A program made the translations under genes and the position numbers. DNA of 48,868 nucleotides from a virus (lineage: Duplodnaviria; Heunggongvirae; Uroviricota; Caudoviricetes), in the IMG/VR virus record IMGVR_UViG_2667527965_000003, positions 1-48,868 of that record; one strand, written 5' to 3'. Below the pieces are notes generated by a model. It made no database searches and was not told the origin of the DNA. It worked only from the letters and a program-made list of their open reading frames with translations. The number at the start of each line of letters is the position of its first letter. The stretch's first letter is position 1. Shown here piece after piece: positions 681-47,610 of the stretch.

Positions 681-1766
681 CTAAACCATAACATACTCTG
701 CACCGCGTGCGTCCAGGTATTTTTTCGTCATTGTTAAATTTTTGTGGCCCAGTAATCGCTGTGCAAAATCCTCGCCACGTTCCTTTTCATAGAGTCTGCT
801 CGCCAAGCTCCTGATCTCATGGTACGGAGGCGGGTTAGGCCCAAATTTTAAAGCAGTCGCATCACGAACGTCGGCAAACGCCTGAGTTAATCCATCAGGG
901 GTAAGAGGCCCCGGCTTTCTGCCGCCGCGCCTGACTGGCGAGTAAAGCATAAAATCTGAAGGATTATTCACCCTGCAGCGCTCGATCACTTCTCCCAGCA
1001 CCAGGCCAACAGCTTCCAGTTTTAAATCGAGTGGGAGCGCCAGCTTGTGCCCGGTCTTTTCCTGAGTAACGAACAACCTGTTTTCTTTTACATCACTGAA
1101 CCGGAAAAGCGAAATATCTTCGCGGCGCTGACCAGACACCAGGGCAAGATCGCACGCATTCGGCAGCCATTCCGAATGAGTGAAAGCCGCCTCCCTGATC
1201 ACAACAAAATGCTCGAGCAGCAAACGCTCACGTTTAACCTTCGGCGTCGGCGTTCGTGTCGGCTCCGCCGGGTTCCTCTCTATATGCCCCTCCACGATTG
1301 CCTCCCTGAATATGTCCAACAGTACCGACCGCAAGCCAGCCGCCATACTCTTCTTGTCGCAGAGGATGTATGACTCCAGGAAGTTCGATATGTCCTTTGT
1401 GCTGACTGACGACAGCGGCGTGCGGCCGAACTCATCATTAATAGTGGCGATCTGATTTCGCCTGACCTTCATCGTGTTTGGCTTCAGCTCTCTTCGCTCC
1501 AGAATTACCTCGTAACGCTCAAGCCACGCCGACACCGTAAAAGTCGGCGCGTCTTTAATGCGGTCCAGAAGTGAGGACGGGAGGTAGTTCTGGTCGATGT
1601 AGTTGTTGGCTTCTATTGCCTGGGCGACGGCGTCTTTTCTGTCGATCCGGCCAAGAGAGATTTCCTGGCCGGTTGTCGGATTTCGCCAGCTGTAAAGCCT
1701 GTCTCTTTTGCGATAGGTCAGGTTACGGGGCAGATTAGCGTCGTAACGAACTGGCCTTTTCGCCAT
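681..1766 (-). CDS. int: Tyrosine site-specific integrase (lambda Int family)
   Basis: 361-aa ORF adjacent to att; C-terminal catalytic motifs (HEIRSL, LLGHKN, TKKYLD tyrosine); overlaps excisionase as in lambda. Confidence 0.85.
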   Translation of the reverse strand: MAKRPVRYDANLPRNLTYRKRDRLYSWRNPTTGQEISLGRIDRKDAVAQAIEANNYIDQNYLPSSLLDRIKDAPTFTVSAWLERYEVILERRELKPNTMKVRRNQIATINDEFGRTPLSSVSTKDISNFLESYILCDKKSMAAGLRSVLLDIFREAIVEGHIERNPAEPTRTPTPKVKRERLLLEHFVVIREAAFTHSEWLPNACDLALVSGQRREDISLFRFSDVKENRLFVTQEKTGHKLALPLDLKLEAVGLVLGEVIERCRVNNPSDFMLYSPVRRGGRKPGPLTPDGLTQAFADVRDATALKFGPNPPPYHEIRSLASRLYEKERGEDFAQRLLGHKNLTMTKKYLDARGAEYVMV

Positions 1767-2007
1767 GAGTCAGTCTCTCCAGTAAGGTGCCGCCAGCTGG
1801 CAGCTTCATGTGTTTTGTCTTGGGGCGCAGATTCTTTTTGCTCGGATCCACATACGTGGCGCCAGGCTCAACCTGATATTCCCTACCGTGCAATTGGGGC
1901 GCAGGATAAATACGCCCCTCTCGTGCCCAGCGGCGAAGAGTGGAAAGGGAAGGCGGCTTTGAGTAAGTCAGGTCTGCCCATTCCTGTAAATTTAGAAGCT
2001 TGGCCAT
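1735..2007 (-). CDS. xis: Excisionase (Xis-like)
   Basis: MAKLLNLQEWADLTYSKPPSLSTLRRWAREGRIYPAP... resembles lambda Xis; GGAGGA RBS before ATG at 2007; overlaps int start. Confidence 0.7.
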   Translation of the reverse strand: MAKLLNLQEWADLTYSKPPSLSTLRRWAREGRIYPAPQLHGREYQVEPGATYVDPSKKNLRPKTKHMKLPAGGTLLERLTHGEKASSLRR

Positions 2008-3018: not shown

Positions 3019-4110
3019 TTAGGCCACGTATTCCGGTTTCATATCTGCCAGGGTGATGCTGAACTTATCGTGCAGCTCGTCGCCCAGGTGACGTTTCGCC
3101 GCCGCCAGCGCGCGCTCGGCTTCTTCGAACCGCTCAGTTGCGCCCGGCTCGCCCGAATTCGGCAGGGAGTTAATCGCCGCCTCGACCCGGTTATACGCAT
3201 CCACCAGGTGGTAACGCTTCACGGCCTTGTTCTTAAGTTCGGTGTACAGCGTAGAACCCAGCGCTGCTTTAGCTGTTTCGATATCAGCACGAACTGCGCT
3301 GGCGCTATCAACATCCTGAGCAGCCTCAATTCGATCCCGGAAATCATCGGCCAGACCATCGATGTTGGCGGCCGATTCCTGCGCGATGTGCGTATGTGTT
3401 ACGGTGTCACCTTTGATATCAGCCAGGCTTACGCGCTGGGCGGGTGCCGGGTTGATCTCCTTCTCGGTGCGCTGCTCGACTTCATCCACACTGTTTACGC
3501 CAAGAATCACGTCAGGGCAGTAGAGGCTAGCCCAGCGTTTAACCCCCAGATAAGCTAGTTGCTGACGCGGATCGCTTGCCCAGAGTGTCGAGTTGCGAAC
3601 CTGAGCTTGAGAAAGCATGAGCACCAGCTCACGTGGTTCATCCTCGCCTTTCATGGTTGCCCACACCCGCACACCTACACCGGCCTCATCCTTTAAATCC
3701 CAGCCTGGCGCGAGGTATTCATTGCCTTTGCTGCTGGTTTTTTTAACAAAGCGTCCAACGATGTTTTCCCAGCTCCCAAACCAGTCATAATGGAGGCGGT
3801 CTTTAGTGGGTGACATTTTGGTGATCACCGCGTTAATCAACTGCGCCTCATAACCTAACGACCCGCTAATAATGTGAGTCTTTTGCGCTACAGCGAAAGG
3901 ATCCATACCCCATCGGGCTGCTTGCATCACTACTGCCATGCAGGCATCCGGCTTGCCGCGAAAGTGGTCAGGCACGAACGCGCCACTGTTAGCCATTACT
4001 ACTGAGAGAGTGCGCAGGCGCTCGAAGAGCTCCCCATTGGTTAAAATGGAGATGTTGTCGATCAGTTGCGTCTTGTTTTCGTTTGTAGAAATTGCGGTAG
4101 ACATGTTCAT
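3019..4110 (-). CDS. recT: RecT-family single-strand annealing protein
   Basis: 363 aa; MAVVMQAARWGMDP segment resembles the RecT core; immediately downstream of a RecE-like exonuclease gene in the same operon. Confidence 0.65.
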   Translation of the reverse strand: MNMSTAISTNENKTQLIDNISILTNGELFERLRTLSVVMANSGAFVPDHFRGKPDACMAVVMQAARWGMDPFAVAQKTHIISGSLGYEAQLINAVITKMSPTKDRLHYDWFGSWENIVGRFVKKTSSKGNEYLAPGWDLKDEAGVGVRVWATMKGEDEPRELVLMLSQAQVRNSTLWASDPRQQLAYLGVKRWASLYCPDVILGVNSVDEVEQRTEKEINPAPAQRVSLADIKGDTVTHTHIAQESAANIDGLADDFRDRIEAAQDVDSASAVRADIETAKAALGSTLYTELKNKAVKRYHLVDAYNRVEAAINSLPNSGEPGATERFEEAERALAAAKRHLGDELHDKFSITLADMKPEYVA

Positions 4111-8035: not shown

Positions 8036-8395
8036 TTACTTATTGCGGGAAGCCAGCAGTTCCTGGAAAAGCTTGTTGTACTTGTCGTGTTTAGCTTTGA
8101 ATTCCTGAAGAACAGCCTTCTTCTCCGAGTCTGGGAAAGCTCGGAAGTGCAAAAGCAGCTCAACCTCGTCAGCAAGAAGAACGGTATCATTGCTGGCCTT
8201 GTCAGGATGCTGCTCATCAGTATCGAGATAGCCCGAGGGCATACCATAGTCGCGCTCAATTCGTCTGGCAGCTCTTTCACCAAAGGAGGCCTTACCATTT
8301 ATCAATTGTGATAAATAGCTCTTCTCTTTTTCTGGTAGCGACTTATCGGCAAACCATGCCTTTAGCTGCTTCCTACGGATATCTGCTGTGCTCAT
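8036..8395 (-). CDS. CI/RacR-like repressor, HTH only, no S24 peptidase domain
   Basis: 119 aa from Met at 8395; N-terminal HTH-like segment (SYLSQLINGKASFGERAARRIERDYGMPSGYLD); divergent to Cro-like gene; too short for a LexA-like C-terminal cleavage domain. Confidence 0.65.
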   Translation of the reverse strand: MSTADIRRKQLKAWFADKSLPEKEKSYLSQLINGKASFGERAARRIERDYGMPSGYLDTDEQHPDKASNDTVLLADEVELLLHFRAFPDSEKKAVLQEFKAKHDKYNKLFQELLASRNK

Positions 8396-8406
8396 CTGCG
8401 TATTTT

Positions 8407-8463
8407 GATTAGTTAATGCTAAACAAGCAAATACTTGACTAAAAGGTTTAGTAATTAGTAAAC
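8407..8463. promoter_or_regulatory. OR operator region between repressor and cro-like gene
   Basis: Near-palindrome GTTTAGTAATTAGTAAAC (8446-8463) plus related GATTAGTTAATGCTAAAC (8407-8424); TTGACT -35-like hexamer at 8435-8440. Confidence 0.5.
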
Positions 8464-8492
8464 TCATCTCACACCTTACCTGGAGCGCATAT

Positions 8493-8753
8493 ATGCAACT
8501 CAAAGATTACTTATCCCAGCAGCGCGGAAACGCCAAATGGTTGGCTAAAAAGCTGGGCATTTCGATGCCGTATCTGTCTCAGATGGCCTCATCCACTTCC
8601 GCAATTTCGCCTGAGAGAGCCATCGAAATTGAGCGATTCACGAATGGAGTCGTTAACCGTGCCGACTGCCTGCCAGAGAAATGGATGCGAATCTGGCCGG
8701 AATACACCCCTGTGAACATGTGTCCTGTAGAGGGCGCCCAAAAGAGGACTTAA
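8493..8753 (+). CDS. Cro-like / YdaS-family HTH regulator
   Basis: 86 aa; ...AKKLGISMPYLSQMASS... resembles Rac YdaS; divergent from repressor across the operator region. Confidence 0.65.
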   Translation: MQLKDYLSQQRGNAKWLAKKLGISMPYLSQMASSTSAISPERAIEIERFTNGVVNRADCLPEKWMRIWPEYTPVNMCPVEGAQKRT

Positions 8754-16907: not shown

Positions 16908-17690
16908 ATGAGCACAATAAATAAGCACGGACTTTCGCGTACAATACCTCCGTCCGTAAAACGATTAGTGCGGCAGAGATGTGGATTTGGATGCGTGATC
17001 TGCGGTTTTGGATTTTACGATTATGAGCATTTCGCTCCGGACTTTGCCGATGCCACAGAACACAACCCTGAAGGCATGACGTTATTGTGCTCTCAATGCA
17101 ATCAAAAACGTGCGCGTGGGCGCTTGTCAGCCCATACAGTTGCGGTCGCCAATGCCAACCCGAAGTGCCTGCAGCAAGGCTTCGCCAGTGAAATGTTCGA
17201 TTTTCACAGCGAACCTATCGAAATAAAATTCGCAGGCGTAACTTTTTATGACTGCAAGCATTTAATTGTTGTTAATGATCGCCCAATTTTATCGGTACGG
17301 CCAGCGATTGATGATAAGTCTCCCATTCTGCTTTCAGGCGTTTTTAGTGATCCTGCCGGCAGGGAGACCCTAATTATCAATGAAAATGAATGGTCAGTAG
17401 ATTCCGAATACTGGGATGTTGAGTGTGTAGGGCCAAGGATAATCATTCGAAGTTCACCGGGGCAGATAGTTCTCGTACTAAAAATGAACAGCCCTACAGG
17501 GATTGTAGTTGAACGCTTCGATATGCTTTTTGAGGGCGTCAGGCTAAGAGGGGACGAAGAGGCGCTACAGGTATGTTATGACGGTGAAAACTGGAATGAA
17601 TATGTGTGTCACAGCATAAGACATTGCAATACGGGTATAAATATCATTACGCGACCATGCGCAGCAAATGACCCGGTTTACGCTGCATAA
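16908..17690 (+). CDS. HNH-endonuclease-domain protein with unknown C-terminal domain
   Basis: N-terminal CGFGCVIC ... YEHF ... TEHNPEGMTLLCSQCNQ (Cys pairs with His/Asn typical of HNH); about 160-aa C-terminal region not recognised; low-GC gene. Confidence 0.5.
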   Translation: MSTINKHGLSRTIPPSVKRLVRQRCGFGCVICGFGFYDYEHFAPDFADATEHNPEGMTLLCSQCNQKRARGRLSAHTVAVANANPKCLQQGFASEMFDFHSEPIEIKFAGVTFYDCKHLIVVNDRPILSVRPAIDDKSPILLSGVFSDPAGRETLIINENEWSVDSEYWDVECVGPRIIIRSSPGQIVLVLKMNSPTGIVVERFDMLFEGVRLRGDEEALQVCYDGENWNEYVCHSIRHCNTGINIITRPCAANDPVYAA

Positions 17691-17796
17691 TCGTTAAACA
17701 TGAGCTACCAGAAAACCCTTTTACTTCAGCCTGTCGATTTAGCCAAAAGGCTGCCTACCATACAAGCGATATGGGAATCCCCATATCGACAGCTAG

Positions 17797-17817
17797 GGCC
17801 TCTCCGGAGGCCTTTTT
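17797..17817 (+). terminator. Rho-independent terminator after the HNH-domain gene
   Basis: GGCCTC-TCCG-GAGGCC hairpin followed by TTTTT. Confidence 0.6.
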
Positions 17818-18163
17818 CACGCCCGGTGAATAGGTGATTCGAGCATGATCGATAATACCGATCGATACAAGAATATTGATCTATGAAATCGATTATTAAA
17901 TAGACACAGAACAGCAACAAATTACCGAAGGGCACCCTCTGACGCAGACGAAATACCCTCTGTCGATAGTGACATCTTTGCCATTTATCTGGCGCCAGGC
18001 TTTCCGTACAGATATTTACGGTCGACATTTCTGACGTGAGCCTTTGTTAAAAATAACGATCACTTTTTACACGTAAGTAGCAATAAAATTTATTTAAATC
18101 AATCAGATGAATGGGCTTGCGCAGCCATGTACTTCATGTGCATACTTAAGCCAAACGAATAAA

Positions 18164-18183
18164 TACTGTTTATACATACAGTA
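18164..18183. promoter_or_regulatory. LexA (SOS) box
   Basis: TACTGTTTATACATACAGTA fits CTGT-N8-ACAG with AT-rich spacer (LexA consensus TACTGTATATATATACAGTA). Confidence 0.65.
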
Positions 18184-18201
18184 TTTTGTTGTATGGTTTA
18201 G

Positions 18202-18327
18202 ATGCTACAGAAAAAAATGAATTTTTCTTCCGGCGAACTTATTAGGAAATTTGCGCCATTTGTTATTTTGGCTCTGTGGAGTGGATTTCTCCCCGCCGGG
18301 AGAGCGTATTTGGTGATAGCAAAGTGA
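18202..18327 (+). CDS. Possible small hydrophobic peptide (41 aa), not in the ORF track
   Basis: ATG at 18202, stop at 18325-18327; MLQKKMNFSSGELIRKFAPFVILALWSGFLPAGRAYLVIAK; about 20 bp downstream of the LexA box; translation unproven. Confidence 0.25.
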   Translation: MLQKKMNFSSGELIRKFAPFVILALWSGFLPAGRAYLVIAK

Positions 18328-18336
18328 GGAGGGGAT

Positions 18337-18531
18337 GTGAGCATAGAGGTCGCCGAAGCGATTAAAACAGTCTCGGAGGGCGGTAAGTTCGTCATTACTT
18401 GCAATAATGGGGAAATTACCAGCCTGGAGCGCGTTAGGGACGATCAGCACGTTCTCTCGCTTGCTGAGTTACTCTACCTTCTTCGAGAAGCTGGGTTCCG
18501 CATTGACGGAGCGGATAGCCTACTGCCATAA
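18337..18531 (+). CDS. Hypothetical small protein (64 aa)
   Basis: GTG start with AGGAGG RBS at 18327-18332; downstream of the LexA box. Confidence 0.4.
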   Translation: MSIEVAEAIKTVSEGGKFVITCNNGEITSLERVRDDQHVLSLAELLYLLREAGFRIDGADSLLP

Positions 18532-18588
18532 TCCTCACGTCGCCTGAACAGCGACACGGAGCAGCAAAGCGCCACGGAGAAAGCTCCC

Positions 18589-19188
18589 ATGGCGCAGTTA
18601 CAACTCATCAAGCAGTCCTCAGGAATCCTGATCCCGGCCACGCCGGAGACCAGCGACTTTCTGCAATCAAAAATCAAGCTCGGCGCCGTGCTGGTGGCCG
18701 ACTTCAAACAGGTCCGTAACCCGGCCTTTCATCGTCGCTTCTTCGCTCTGCTGAATCTCGGCTTCGAATACTGGGAGCCAACCGGCGGCGCTATCTCATC
18801 CAACGAACGCAAGCTGGTGACCGGCTATGCGAAGTTTCTGGCATCGTTCGGCGGGAGCGAAACCGCGCTGCTGGATGCTGCTGAGCAGTATCTCGATCAG
18901 GTGGGCAGCCGCCGCATCACCAATGGCATCAGCCTGTGCAAATCCTTCGACGCCTATCGCGCATGGGTGACCATCGAATCCGGCCACTACGACACCATAC
19001 AGCTGCCTGACGGCATCCTCCGGAAGCATCCCCGCAGCATCGCCTTCGCCAATATGGACGAGACCGAGTTTCAGCAGCTCTACAAAGCCGCGCTCGATGT
19101 TCTGTGGCGCTGGATATTGTCGCGCGCATTCAGGGACCAGCGCGAGGCTGAGAACGCCGCCGCGCAGTTGATGAGCTTCGGAGGCTGA
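18589..19188 (+). CDS. DUF1367-like nin-region protein
   Basis: 199 aa; resembles a family commonly found in lambdoid nin regions (from memory). Confidence 0.5.
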   Translation: MAQLQLIKQSSGILIPATPETSDFLQSKIKLGAVLVADFKQVRNPAFHRRFFALLNLGFEYWEPTGGAISSNERKLVTGYAKFLASFGGSETALLDAAEQYLDQVGSRRITNGISLCKSFDAYRAWVTIESGHYDTIQLPDGILRKHPRSIAFANMDETEFQQLYKAALDVLWRWILSRAFRDQREAENAAAQLMSFGG

Positions 19189-19192
19189 CCAG

Positions 19193-19393
19193 ATGGCGAA
19201 ATCATGGTTCCAGCATACCGATTGCACTACGGCGCAGGCCGACGAACTGATGGCTACGTACCGGGCCCGCGGCGTGGCCGTTGAACGGAGCCTCAATCCT
19301 GACTTCATCACCTGGACCGTCAGCGTCCGGCTGCCGGAAGCAAAGCGGCAGGAACGCACGCCGCGTACGTTCCGCCAAAAGGTCTGGGGGTGA
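19193..19393 (+). CDS. Hypothetical small protein
   Basis: 66-aa ORF between DUF1367-like gene and ninG. Confidence 0.35.
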   Translation: MAKSWFQHTDCTTAQADELMATYRARGVAVERSLNPDFITWTVSVRLPEAKRQERTPRTFRQKVWG

Positions 19394-19395
19394 GC

Positions 19396-20001
19396 ATGTC
19401 TAAGAAACCCCGCCGTAAGTGCACAAACCAGAGCTGCCGCGAGTGGTTCCACCCGGTGCGCAACGGCCAGGTGGTCTGCTGCTACGAGTGCGCCACTGCC
19501 GTCGCCAAAGCGCAGACCGCAAAGAACCGGGCCGAGGCTCTGCGTGCTGAGAAGAAACGCCAGCGCGAAGAGGAGAAGGCGCAGCGTGCGCGGCAGGCCG
19601 AACGCCGCCAGGCGGTGAAGCCATTAAGTTACTTTCGCGACCAGGCCCAACAGGCTTTTAACGAGTTCATCCGATACCGGGATCGGCATCAGCCATGCAT
19701 CAGCTGTGGTCGATATCACTACGGTCAGTATCACGCCGGGCATTACCGCACGACTGGTGCCAATCCGGAGCTGCGCTTCAACGAGGACAACTGCCATAAG
19801 CAGTGTTCGGCCTGCAATAACCATCTTTCTGGCAACCTTACCGCCTACCGTCCGGCGTTGATCGCCAAAATCGGACAGGCCCGCTTTGATGCCCTGATGG
19901 GGCCGCACGAATTACCGAAATGGAAGCGCGACGACTACATCAGGATCCGCGACGAGTACCGCGCAAAGCTCAAAAAACTAAAACAGCAGGTGGCTGCATG
20001 A
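19396..20001 (+). CDS. ninG: NinG/Rap-like recombination-associated protein
   Basis: ATG at 19396; multiple Cys pairs (CTNQSC, CCYEC, CISC, CSAC) and basic Lys/Arg-rich stretch typical of NinG. Confidence 0.65.
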   Translation: MSKKPRRKCTNQSCREWFHPVRNGQVVCCYECATAVAKAQTAKNRAEALRAEKKRQREEEKAQRARQAERRQAVKPLSYFRDQAQQAFNEFIRYRDRHQPCISCGRYHYGQYHAGHYRTTGANPELRFNEDNCHKQCSACNNHLSGNLTAYRPALIAKIGQARFDALMGPHELPKWKRDDYIRIRDEYRAKLKKLKQQVAA

Positions 20002-20138
20002 AACCAGAACTAATCGAATCGCTTCGCATGCGCTGGCTGCGCCTTCGCATTTATCGCCGCCCGGGAACGGTGCTGGTGGACTATCGCATCCTTCGTAACT
20101 TTATTCGCATCTACCAGATTGCAGGAGCTGCAGCGTGA
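19998..20138 (+). CDS. Hypothetical small basic protein (46 aa)
   Basis: ATG at 19998 overlapping the ninG stop; ends overlapping the next start; Arg-rich. Confidence 0.3.
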   Translation: MKPELIESLRMRWLRLRIYRRPGTVLVDYRILRNFIRIYQIAGAAA

Positions 20139-20824
20139 ATACTCAATACCTGGAATTTGTACGCCAGCAGCTCATCGTTGCGACTGCTGATCTGAGCGGG
20201 GCGACCAAAGGGCAGTTGATGGCCTGGCTGGAGAACGCCCAGTTCGATACCGGGACATTTAAGCGGAAGAAGCCTAAAGTATGGGACGAAGAAAGCGAGA
20301 AGTGGGTGCCGGTTGATAACCCACCGATCCCCGGCAAACAGTCACACGCAAAGGGCTCACACATTCCTCTGGTTCAGCCGGTCGAATACTCCACCGCGTC
20401 GTGGCGCCGGGCGGTCCTGTCACTGGAGGAACATCAGAAGGCCTGGCTGCTATGGAACTACAGCGAAAACACGCGCTGGGAGAATCAGGTGTCGATCACC
20501 CAGTGGGCATGGGGCGAGTTCAGGGCGCAGCTGGTTGGTAAGAAAGTGGCCGGTAAGACGATGGAGCGGTTGAAGGCATTAATCTGGCTGGCGGCGCAGG
20601 ACGTGAAAGCTGAACTGGCCGGGCGGGAGACTTACCAGAAGCAGGAACTGGCTGAGCTATGCGGTGTGAAGCCGGATAACTGGAGTCATAACTACGCCGA
20701 TTACTGGAATGCCATGTGCGCCATATTTGAGCGACTTGATAGTGATGCTTTACTGCGAGCAGTGAGAACACGATCACAACAAAAATCAGCAAATTCGCAG
20801 CAAGGTATTGCAAAAGTCAATTAA
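20135..20824 (+). CDS. Putative late-gene antiterminator (Q-like)
   Basis: 229 aa; GTG start with AGGAG RBS; positioned after ninG and before the lysis cassette as Q is in lambdoid phages; call is mainly positional. Confidence 0.45.
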   Translation: MNTQYLEFVRQQLIVATADLSGATKGQLMAWLENAQFDTGTFKRKKPKVWDEESEKWVPVDNPPIPGKQSHAKGSHIPLVQPVEYSTASWRRAVLSLEEHQKAWLLWNYSENTRWENQVSITQWAWGEFRAQLVGKKVAGKTMERLKALIWLAAQDVKAELAGRETYQKQELAELCGVKPDNWSHNYADYWNAMCAIFERLDSDALLRAVRTRSQQKSANSQQGIAKVN

Positions 20825-47013: not shown

Positions 47014-47033
47014 TACTGTATATATAAACAGTA
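47014..47033. promoter_or_regulatory. LexA (SOS) box overlapping a promoter
   Basis: TACTGTATATATAAACAGTA, one mismatch from consensus; TTGATC -35-like hexamer 17 bp upstream; ATG of next gene 19 bp downstream. Confidence 0.7.
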
Positions 47034-47051
47034 AAATAATAAGGAGGGGTT

Positions 47052-47291
47052 ATGCCACGCAGAATCGATATTGAGGGTGCTTTTCACACAGCCATTAAAC
47101 ACGAGTCCAACGGGCGCCGTACGGTGACTACTGAGGACTTCGTGAAGCACCTGGCCCGCGCTAACTGGAACTGGTCGCTTAAAGAGGCGAACGACTGGAT
47201 CGAGAGCCACGTTTCTACCTTTAAGGATGTTTCGACCTGTGAGGGCCAGGCGCGCACCTTCATGCTCTACAACCCGAACGGAGGCCTGTGA
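47052..47291 (+). CDS. DinI-like small protein, SOS-regulated (tentative)
   Basis: 79 aa; AAGGAGGGG RBS; directly downstream of LexA box; N-terminus MPRRIDIEG and ANDWIESH segment loosely resemble DinI (MRIEVTI... / ADDWFVSE). Confidence 0.4.
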   Translation: MPRRIDIEGAFHTAIKHESNGRRTVTTEDFVKHLARANWNWSLKEANDWIESHVSTFKDVSTCEGQARTFMLYNPNGGL

Positions 47292-47292
47292 C

Positions 47293-47610
47293 ATGGGCTT
47301 TCCATCTCCAGCTGCTGATTACGTTTCTCAGCGAATGACCCCGGAGCTCATTTGCGGCGTCAGTATTGATACCCGCATTCTTGAAACATCATCCGGTTTC
47401 GCATTAATCGAACCGGTTACCCGGTTAGTGCAAGGTCAGGTTCTGCTGATTTTGTCCGGCGGCAGGACGCAGTTTGTGAAACTCAGGGGCAGGGCATTAA
47501 TCACTGATGATGGTGAAGCGATCGAGGGGGAGGCGGCGGAGGAAGTTGAGGTTCTGGGGCGAGTGACGTTCTTCATCAACAGTGCGCTGCAGGATGACAG
47601 AATTGTGTGA
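47293..47610 (+). CDS. UmuD'-like (S24-fold) protein starting at the UmuD cleavage-product N-terminus
   Basis: 105 aa; begins MGFPSPAADYVSQR, matching the UmuD' N-terminus GFPSPAADYVEQR; C-terminal region (GQVLLILSGGRTQFVKLRGRALI) aligns loosely with UmuD; no umuC-like gene adjacent. Confidence 0.5.
   Translation: MGFPSPAADYVSQRMTPELICGVSIDTRILETSSGFALIEPVTRLVQGQVLLILSGGRTQFVKLRGRALITDDGEAIEGEAAEEVEVLGRVTFFINSALQDDRIV

Follow-up and report, generated by a model that had tools for sequence, protein, structure and literature searches.

The 48.9-kb window examined here (IMG/VR record IMGVR_UViG_2667527965_000003, positions 1 to 48,868) is a lambdoid prophage with a Gifsy/Rac layout. It contains a LexA (SOS) box, TACTGTTTATACATACAGTA, at 18164–18183 (no strand assigned), followed on the plus strand by a GTG-start gene for a 64-aa protein at 18337–18531. 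This locus is likely to be an SOS induction module of the Gifsy type, in which the 64-aa protein is an antirepressor of the Rem/GfoA/GftA kind and acts on a DicA-like repressor that does not cleave itself. The evidence consists of the quality and conservation of the operator, the family to which the small protein belongs, synteny, and a repressor without a Peptidase_S24 (S24) domain; from these we infer LexA binding, the exact promoter, the protein–protein interaction and induction itself.

In a lysogen, host LexA bound at 18164–18183 would keep a weak rightward promoter shut. Following DNA damage, RecA-stimulated cleavage of LexA would free this promoter, and a transcript with a structured leader of about 150 nt would express the 64-aa protein, and probably also DUF1367, NinG and Q. 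The 64-aa protein would then bind the short DicA-like repressor encoded on the minus strand (8036–8395 or 8036–8467) and remove it from its operators, so that the early lytic operons are switched on. The mechanism is already known; distinctive here are the absence of dinI, the structured leader and a conserved element further upstream. If correct, the scheme accounts for DNA-damage responsiveness in a Gifsy/Rac-like prophage whose DicA-like repressor is not cleavable, and it offers a simple way of recognizing SOS-inducible prophages in which a CI-type repressor is lacking.

The LexA box and its occurrence in related loci

The initial annotation had pointed out a CTGT-N8-ACAG SOS box at 18164–18183, and the sequence TACTGTTTATACATACAGTA bears this out. 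Two matches to CTGT-N8-ACAG are present in the window (18166 and 47016), against a mean of 0.63 in shuffled sequences. When the 20-nt Escherichia coli consensus TACTGTATATATATACAGTA was searched for with up to three mismatches, only two sites were found in the window, at 18164 (two mismatches) and 47014 (one mismatch), and 100 dinucleotide shuffles gave no match. Sites were also scored with a semi-quantitative position weight matrix (PWM) built from 24 E. coli SOS boxes. The box at 18164–18183 scored 26.8 bits, more than 22 of the 24 training sites, and the best unrelated site in the window scored 12.3. The box is about 9.7 kb from the repressor gene, and thus outside the immunity region.

Little or no change is seen in the box among relatives from Enterobacter, Buttiauxella, a Klebsiella phage and IMG/VR contigs. 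Prophages of the Enterobacter cloacae complex (L003–L008) and of Buttiauxella (L009–L011) have the same or nearly the same box 171–205 nt 5′ of the gene. A scan of IMG/VR yielded 46 loci encoding relatives of the 64-aa protein with 38–98% identity, of which 45 could be evaluated, one being without upstream sequence. A strong LexA box (PWM score 21.7–27.6 bits) was present upstream in all 45. In 32 of these loci dinI lies between the box and the gene, which are then 369–382 nt apart, and the gene falls exactly between dinI and DUF1367; in the 13 loci without dinI the distance is 171–191 nt. DUF1367 is the next gene in 43 of the 46 loci, and the start codon is GTG in 43 of 46.

LexA control need not go with the whole family. 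No LexA box lies within 1.5 kb of the true Rem orthologues (those of Qin, mEp460_ev081, the PPompW phages and Rac of E. coli 442/2). Each of these orthologues (L019, 4652–5275; L067–L069) follows a hok/mok (gef) type I toxin module, which stands where the window's relatives carry the LexA box, accompanied or not by dinI. To judge from these sequences, LexA control is a property of the window's branch of phrog_340, whether or not dinI is present, and not of the Rem orthologues. The distinction between a LexA-boxed branch and unboxed Rem orthologues sharpens the question of what the Rem inducer in Qin might be (Ragunathan and Vanderpool 2023, PMC10448788).

The 64-aa protein and its presumed target

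The 64-aa protein (18337–18531, plus strand) matches phrog_340 with E = 1.5e-13 and is predicted to be a small antirepressor of the Rem/GfoA type. Its gene is preceded by a Shine-Dalgarno sequence, GAGGAGGGG (18325–18333, plus strand), recognized from the sequence and invariant in the Enterobacter relatives, in which an ATG is aligned with the GTG start. The same phrog is matched by E. coli Rem (E = 4.4e-21) and by gp49 of mEp237 (E = 1.4e-20). In profile comparisons with hhalign, the 64-aa family aligned with Rem at 92% probability (E = 6e-7), Rem having a 24-residue insertion, with mEp237 gp49 at 72% probability, and with the GftA family at 33% probability (E = 4.7e-4). BLASTP aligned the 64-aa protein with GftA at 26% identity over 42 aa (pairwise E = 8e-6). 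Membership of the Rem family is thus well supported by sequence comparison, and a direct relationship to GftA appears plausible.

An AlphaFold2 (AF2) model of the protein, with a predicted local distance difference test score (pLDDT) of 85, consists of a helix, a beta-hairpin and a second helix. The part aligned with GftA corresponds to the beta-hairpin and C-terminal helix in both AF2 models; as the GftA model is of low confidence (pLDDT 62), this match of secondary-structure elements is only suggestive. The N-terminus of the window protein is predicted to be helical, whereas that of GftA is predicted to form a beta-hairpin. A search of the Protein Data Bank (PDB) with the profile of the 64-aa family returned nothing.

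The protein is genuine and conserved: clustering of 1.8 billion proteins at 50% leaves 16 representatives of its family. When 50,697 phage records were searched with it by tblastn, the only matches were in three Klebsiella phages. The assignment suggests a likely function for widespread unannotated phage proteins of 57–73 aa that are labelled "hypothetical" or are not called at all. In a metagenomic protein of 134 aa (P0033), a segment resembling the 64-aa protein is fused in tandem to one resembling mEp237 gp49. Each segment matches phrog_340, and the protein so links two sub-types of small antirepressor. GTG starts are found in nearly all members of the family, and in gftA and gp49 too, which suggests that translation of the antirepressor is deliberately initiated weakly. 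In the window, a minimal open reading frame (ORF), ATG-TGA (gATGTGAgc, 18335–18340), overlaps the GTG start.

The presumed target is a short prophage repressor encoded on the minus strand (8036–8503), which matches phrog_5736 with E = 2.4e-20. Its start is ambiguous: the methionine at 8395 gives 119 aa, relatives are called from 8467, giving 143 aa, and the possible range is 119–155 aa. A Pfam search with E values up to 1 detected no Peptidase_S24 match in it. Over the C-terminal 64 aa its identity to DicA is 38% (E = 2e-11), and the protein matches the NCBIfam DicA subfamily with E = 3e-11, under the curated cut-off; no likeness to DicA was detectable in the N-terminal half. Its short length, the absence of S24 and the DicA-like C-terminus indicate that it is not a self-cleaving repressor of the CI/LexA type. 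The repressor showed no similarity to RacR, despite its YdaS/YdaT-like neighbours. The repressor gene is divergent from a YdaS/Cro-like gene (8493–8753), the gap being 25 bp from the start at 8467 and 97 bp from the methionine at 8395. The 97-bp gap (8396–8492) holds a near-palindrome, GTTTAGTAATTAGTAAAC, which could be an operator.

Repressor homologues were sought by tblastn upstream of the related loci, and types were counted only where tblastn gave a match, some loci with a full upstream flank giving none. Those found were of the window type, of a 215-aa Buttiauxella type (L009) or GtgR-like, and none had S24. The 215-aa repressor, encoded at 1260–1907 (minus strand) in L009 and L010, consists of an extra N-terminal HTH_3 domain and a region homologous to the entire short repressor. 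The antirepressor of L009 and L010 is the same as that of L011, so that one antirepressor is paired with repressors that are about 35–40% identical, a situation that recalls the cross-reactivity of GfoA and GfhA.

The arrangement closely resembles that of the Gifsy prophages, whose short, non-cleavable repressors are inactivated by the small antirepressors GfoA, GftA and GfhA (Lemire et al. 2011, PMC3121763). GftA and GfoA are controlled by LexA, bind their repressors and suffice for induction, and terminators also precede the Gifsy SOS loci (PMC3121763). In the Gifsy-2 record the order is terminator, LexA box, dinI, gftA (GTG start, 73 aa), irsA/DUF1367 (STM1020), a 66-aa ORF, NinG and Q. As in the window, the LexA box of Gifsy-1, -2 and -3 lies outside the immunity region with a terminator ahead of it, and a small ORF with a non-ATG start stands directly 5′ of irsA/DUF1367, followed by the 66-aa ORF, NinG and Q. 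The short repressor without S24 is shared as well, as is the layout of int, RecT, RecE, repressor, cro, cII-like gene and replication genes. Unlike the Gifsy prophages, the window has no dinI and has a 153-nt leader in its place. A study of RNA repair in Gifsy-1 (PMC9879122) proved not to be relevant here.

Rem of the E. coli Qin prophage, which was found by PSI-BLAST from GfoA and FsoA and relieves DicA repression 165-fold (PMC10448788), likewise belongs to phrog_340 and lies upstream of Q-region genes. In a Rac variant the gene, annotated "rem: prophage antirepressor", is directly 5′ of irsA/DUF1367. Rem differs from the window protein in its length of 83 aa, including the 24-residue insertion; the DicA-like C-terminal domain of the window repressor is shared with DicA, the partner of Rem. 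Two further phages have a family member or homologue in the same slot with a LexA box upstream, namely mEp237 (gp49, 82 aa, GTG start) and Klebsiella phage 5 LV-2017 (L012), in which an unannotated, 40%-identical homologue lies between dinI and DUF1367 and the box precedes dinI. Both small ORFs start with GTG, as in the window. Unlike in the window, dinI separates the box from the small ORF in these two phages, and the box overlaps a −35/−10 pair, TTGAAC or TTGATC ... TATACT. Tum of coliphage 186 and AntC of N15 are, as proposed here, LexA-repressed antirepressors that inactivate a non-cleavable repressor (PMC3121763). No sequence relationship to either was seen in the tblastn search of phage records with the 64-aa protein, no direct alignment having been made, and Tum, at 146 aa, is fused to a DinI-like half, unlike the 64-aa protein.

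Taken together, the gftA position, membership of phrog_340 (with Rem), the repressor without S24 and the LexA box in 45 of 45 related loci indicate that the locus is a Gifsy-type circuit without dinI, made up of LexA, an antirepressor and a non-cleavable repressor. On the same grounds the suggestion of an SOS-induced antirepressor, made in the initial annotation, is supported.

Contrary evidence and rival explanations

Several observations weigh against this interpretation. The first gene of the Gifsy operon, dinI, is absent, and no DinI-like remnant was detected between the box and the 64-aa gene (tblastn, E up to 100). A consensus scan found no sigma-70 promoter with at least 9 of 12 matches overlapping the box, so that homologous loci are the basis for the start site and, strictly speaking, for the direction of transcription as well. 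The direct similarity to GftA is weak, and the two proteins fall into separate PHROGs (phrog_340 and phrog_4847). BLASTP against Rem finds nothing, which is attributable to the 24-residue insertion in Rem, and a fold search of BFVD and PDB with the AF2 model gave nothing at E ≤ 0.001. The lack of a LexA box at the Rem orthologues means that SOS control does not follow from membership of the family alone. Finally, the real inducer might conceivably be encoded in a second SOS operon, at 47014.

This last point bears on the possibility that the 64-aa protein is SOS-induced and acts elsewhere, on the repressors of co-resident prophages or on RecA/LexA, the inducer being another factor such as the 79-aa product of the second operon. 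The box at 47014–47033 is nearer the consensus and precedes that 79-aa protein, a member of phrog_3893, and action in trans, on other prophages, is known for the antirepressors of Gifsy and Fels (PMC3121763). However, the 79-aa protein has no similarity to the antirepressor family, and its gene is paired with a UmuD′-like gene (phrog_3469), resembling SOS mutagenesis cargo. The 64-aa family, on the other hand, is accompanied by the same types of repressor from locus to locus and occupies exactly the gftA slot, and we regard a role elsewhere as unlikely. It is also quite improbable that the LexA promoter serves mainly to transcribe DUF1367, NinG and Q, with damage turning on the late-gene activator, the repressor being bypassed and the 64-aa protein being accessory. 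Such an SOS-driven route to late-gene expression had been proposed in the initial annotation, and some observations favour it: no terminator was found at 18531–18589 between the 64-aa gene and DUF1367-NinG-Q, all the genes are on the same strand, and dinI-gftA-irsA was treated as a single operon by Lemire et al. (PMC3121763). The route is not needed, however, since expression of just the small ORF from PBAD is enough to induce Gifsy-2, and deleting irsA non-polarly is without effect (PMC3121763). From general lambdoid biology, Q without replication and early functions would give no productive burst. Moreover, a promoter-like sequence, TTGACG-N18-CATAAT, is found just upstream of DUF1367. This site (10 of 12 matches, with TG) is at 18503–18532, within the 3′ end of the 64-aa gene, and Gifsy-2 has a counterpart, TTGACT-N18-CATAAT, in the same relative place (L001, about 3684–3713) despite its different antirepressor gene. 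Its occurrence in both suggests that DUF1367-NinG-Q has a promoter of its own.

A different product of the locus, a small SOS-induced membrane toxin of the TisB/DinQ/HokE type, had been considered in the initial annotation on account of the 41-aa hydrophobic ORF at 18202–18327. The positions of this ORF, and of the 64-codon GTG ORF with its ribosome-binding site, were confirmed. The ORF starts 18 nt past the box and has a hydrophobic core, FAPFVILALWSGFLPA; leader ORFs of 41–49 codons are also present in several relatives, and arise in only 3–8% of shuffled leaders. These points notwithstanding, its reading frame is not maintained. Two single-nucleotide indels relative to the Enterobacter relatives place the conserved leader nucleotides in different frames, Buttiauxella leaders contain yet another ORF, and the leaders of L022, L025, L028 and L053 have no ATG-initiated ORF of at least 25 codons. 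In L028 the ATG of the 41-aa ORF is ACG, and an in-frame TGA is present in addition. The 41-aa ORF has no Shine-Dalgarno sequence and no match in Pfam, PHROG or NCBIfam, and Rfam, which covers described RNAs, gave no match in 17600–18650 at E up to 1, antitoxin RNAs included. RNA helices fit the pattern of nucleotide conservation in the leader better than a reading frame does. With the ORF frameshifted, deprived of its ATG or interrupted by a stop in close relatives, the toxin was not borne out, and we consider it highly improbable. From these comparisons the 41-aa ORF does not appear to be a conserved gene, and a structured 5′ leader is the likelier reading of this stretch.

The leader, the flanking DNA and the prophage

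The 153-nt leader, or 5′ untranslated region (18184–18336, plus strand), containing the non-conserved 41-codon ORF, was analysed with RNAalifold. Eleven distinct leaders gave long-range helices pairing 18225–18235 with 18294–18304 and 18184–18192 with 18316–18324, which end just 5′ of the Shine-Dalgarno sequence. In the predicted helices 96.7% of cells were paired and four pairs were changed on both sides, a result reached by none of 500 shuffles. The compensatory changes are found in L025 and L003. As there are few independent changes, and the sequences tested were also those from which the structure was derived, the helices are only suggestive. The fold of the single sequence was not unusually stable relative to shuffles (z = 0.32), and support for a structure comes only from comparing the leaders. 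A local hairpin at 18287–18304, with a short T-rich tail, involves the same 3′ arm; the leader could conceivably adopt either of two structures. Two other accounts of the leader were tried and rejected. Translation of a leader ORF coupled to the antirepressor start was suggested by five variants with ORFs of 41–49 codons in different frames, and is contradicted by L022, L025, L028 and L053, which have none. A decayed dinI was sought with tblastn and blastn-short, and no remnant was found.

The module is bounded on its left by a terminator-like Rho-independent hairpin, GGCCTC-TCCG-GAGGCC followed by TTTTT (17796–17817, plus strand), detected by RNA folding of 17770–17840 (z = −2.6). Every related locus has a hairpin and T-run of its own at the same aligned place, with unrelated genes upstream. 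The terminator is about 345 nt from the box here, compared with about 70 nt in Gifsy-2, and this stretch is conserved among loci whose upstream genes are unrelated. It contains a non-coding element, ATGATCGATAATACCGATCGATACAAGAATATTGATCTATGAAATCGATTA (17845–17895, no strand assigned), recognized by cross-locus alignment, which is rich in ATCGAT and GATC, with three copies of each in about 50 nt, and is the densest ATCGAT cluster in the window. The element is near-invariant across seven loci with differing upstream genes. It begins directly after the terminator hairpin and is not found in Gifsy-2; it could be a protein-binding site or a site sensitive to Dam or SeqA.

We can envisage, though we think it doubtful, that the dinI-less branch has a second layer of control beyond LexA that is absent from the Gifsy phages, residing in the structured leader or in the ATCGAT/GATC element about 300 nt 5′ of the box. 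Candidate second inputs would be such as the Dam methylation or SeqA state, an RNA-binding factor or attenuation, and a layer of this kind would impose a threshold or a delay on induction.

Closer to the box, a block of invariant sequence, TGTGCATACT (18137–18146, plus strand), lies 18–27 nt 5′ of it and may represent the −35 region. The block is unchanged in all aligned leaders, including the divergent ones from Buttiauxella. A manual search for promoter hexamers at the box gave at best 7 of 12 matches (TGCATA-N17-AATACT), and hexamers were not assigned; relatives containing dinI have a clear TTGAxx ... TATACT promoter overlapping the box. No conserved gene is present at 17691–18336. The description of the box as lying in a 500-bp noncoding stretch was accordingly right as to the lack of conserved genes, and too short as to length, which is about 646 nt.

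DUF1367, NinG and Q lie downstream on the plus strand, in agreement with the initial annotation. The DUF1367/IrsA homologue (18589–19188; Pfam DUF1367, E = 4e-95), presumably the next gene of the operon, is separated from the 64-aa ORF by 57 nt and is 86% identical to the irsA homologue STM1020 of Gifsy-2. It is followed on the same strand, and in the same order as in Gifsy-2, by a 66-aa ORF (19193–19393), NinG (19390–20001) and the Q antiterminator (20135–20824). Elsewhere in the prophage, RecT and a 1090-aa RecE-like exonuclease are encoded on the minus strand after the integrase. The order onward is repressor, YdaS/Cro-like gene and YdaT/CII-like gene, replication genes and methylases, the SOS module, NinG and Q, lysis genes and virion genes.

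The second SOS box, TACTGTATATATAAACAGTA (47014–47033), has a single mismatch and the highest PWM score in the window, and lies 18 nt 5′ of the 79-aa ORF. This ORF (47052–47291; phrog_3893) has homologues in about 40 phage records. By its gene content, the region 47014–47610 looks like an SOS-controlled operon carrying mutagenesis cargo.

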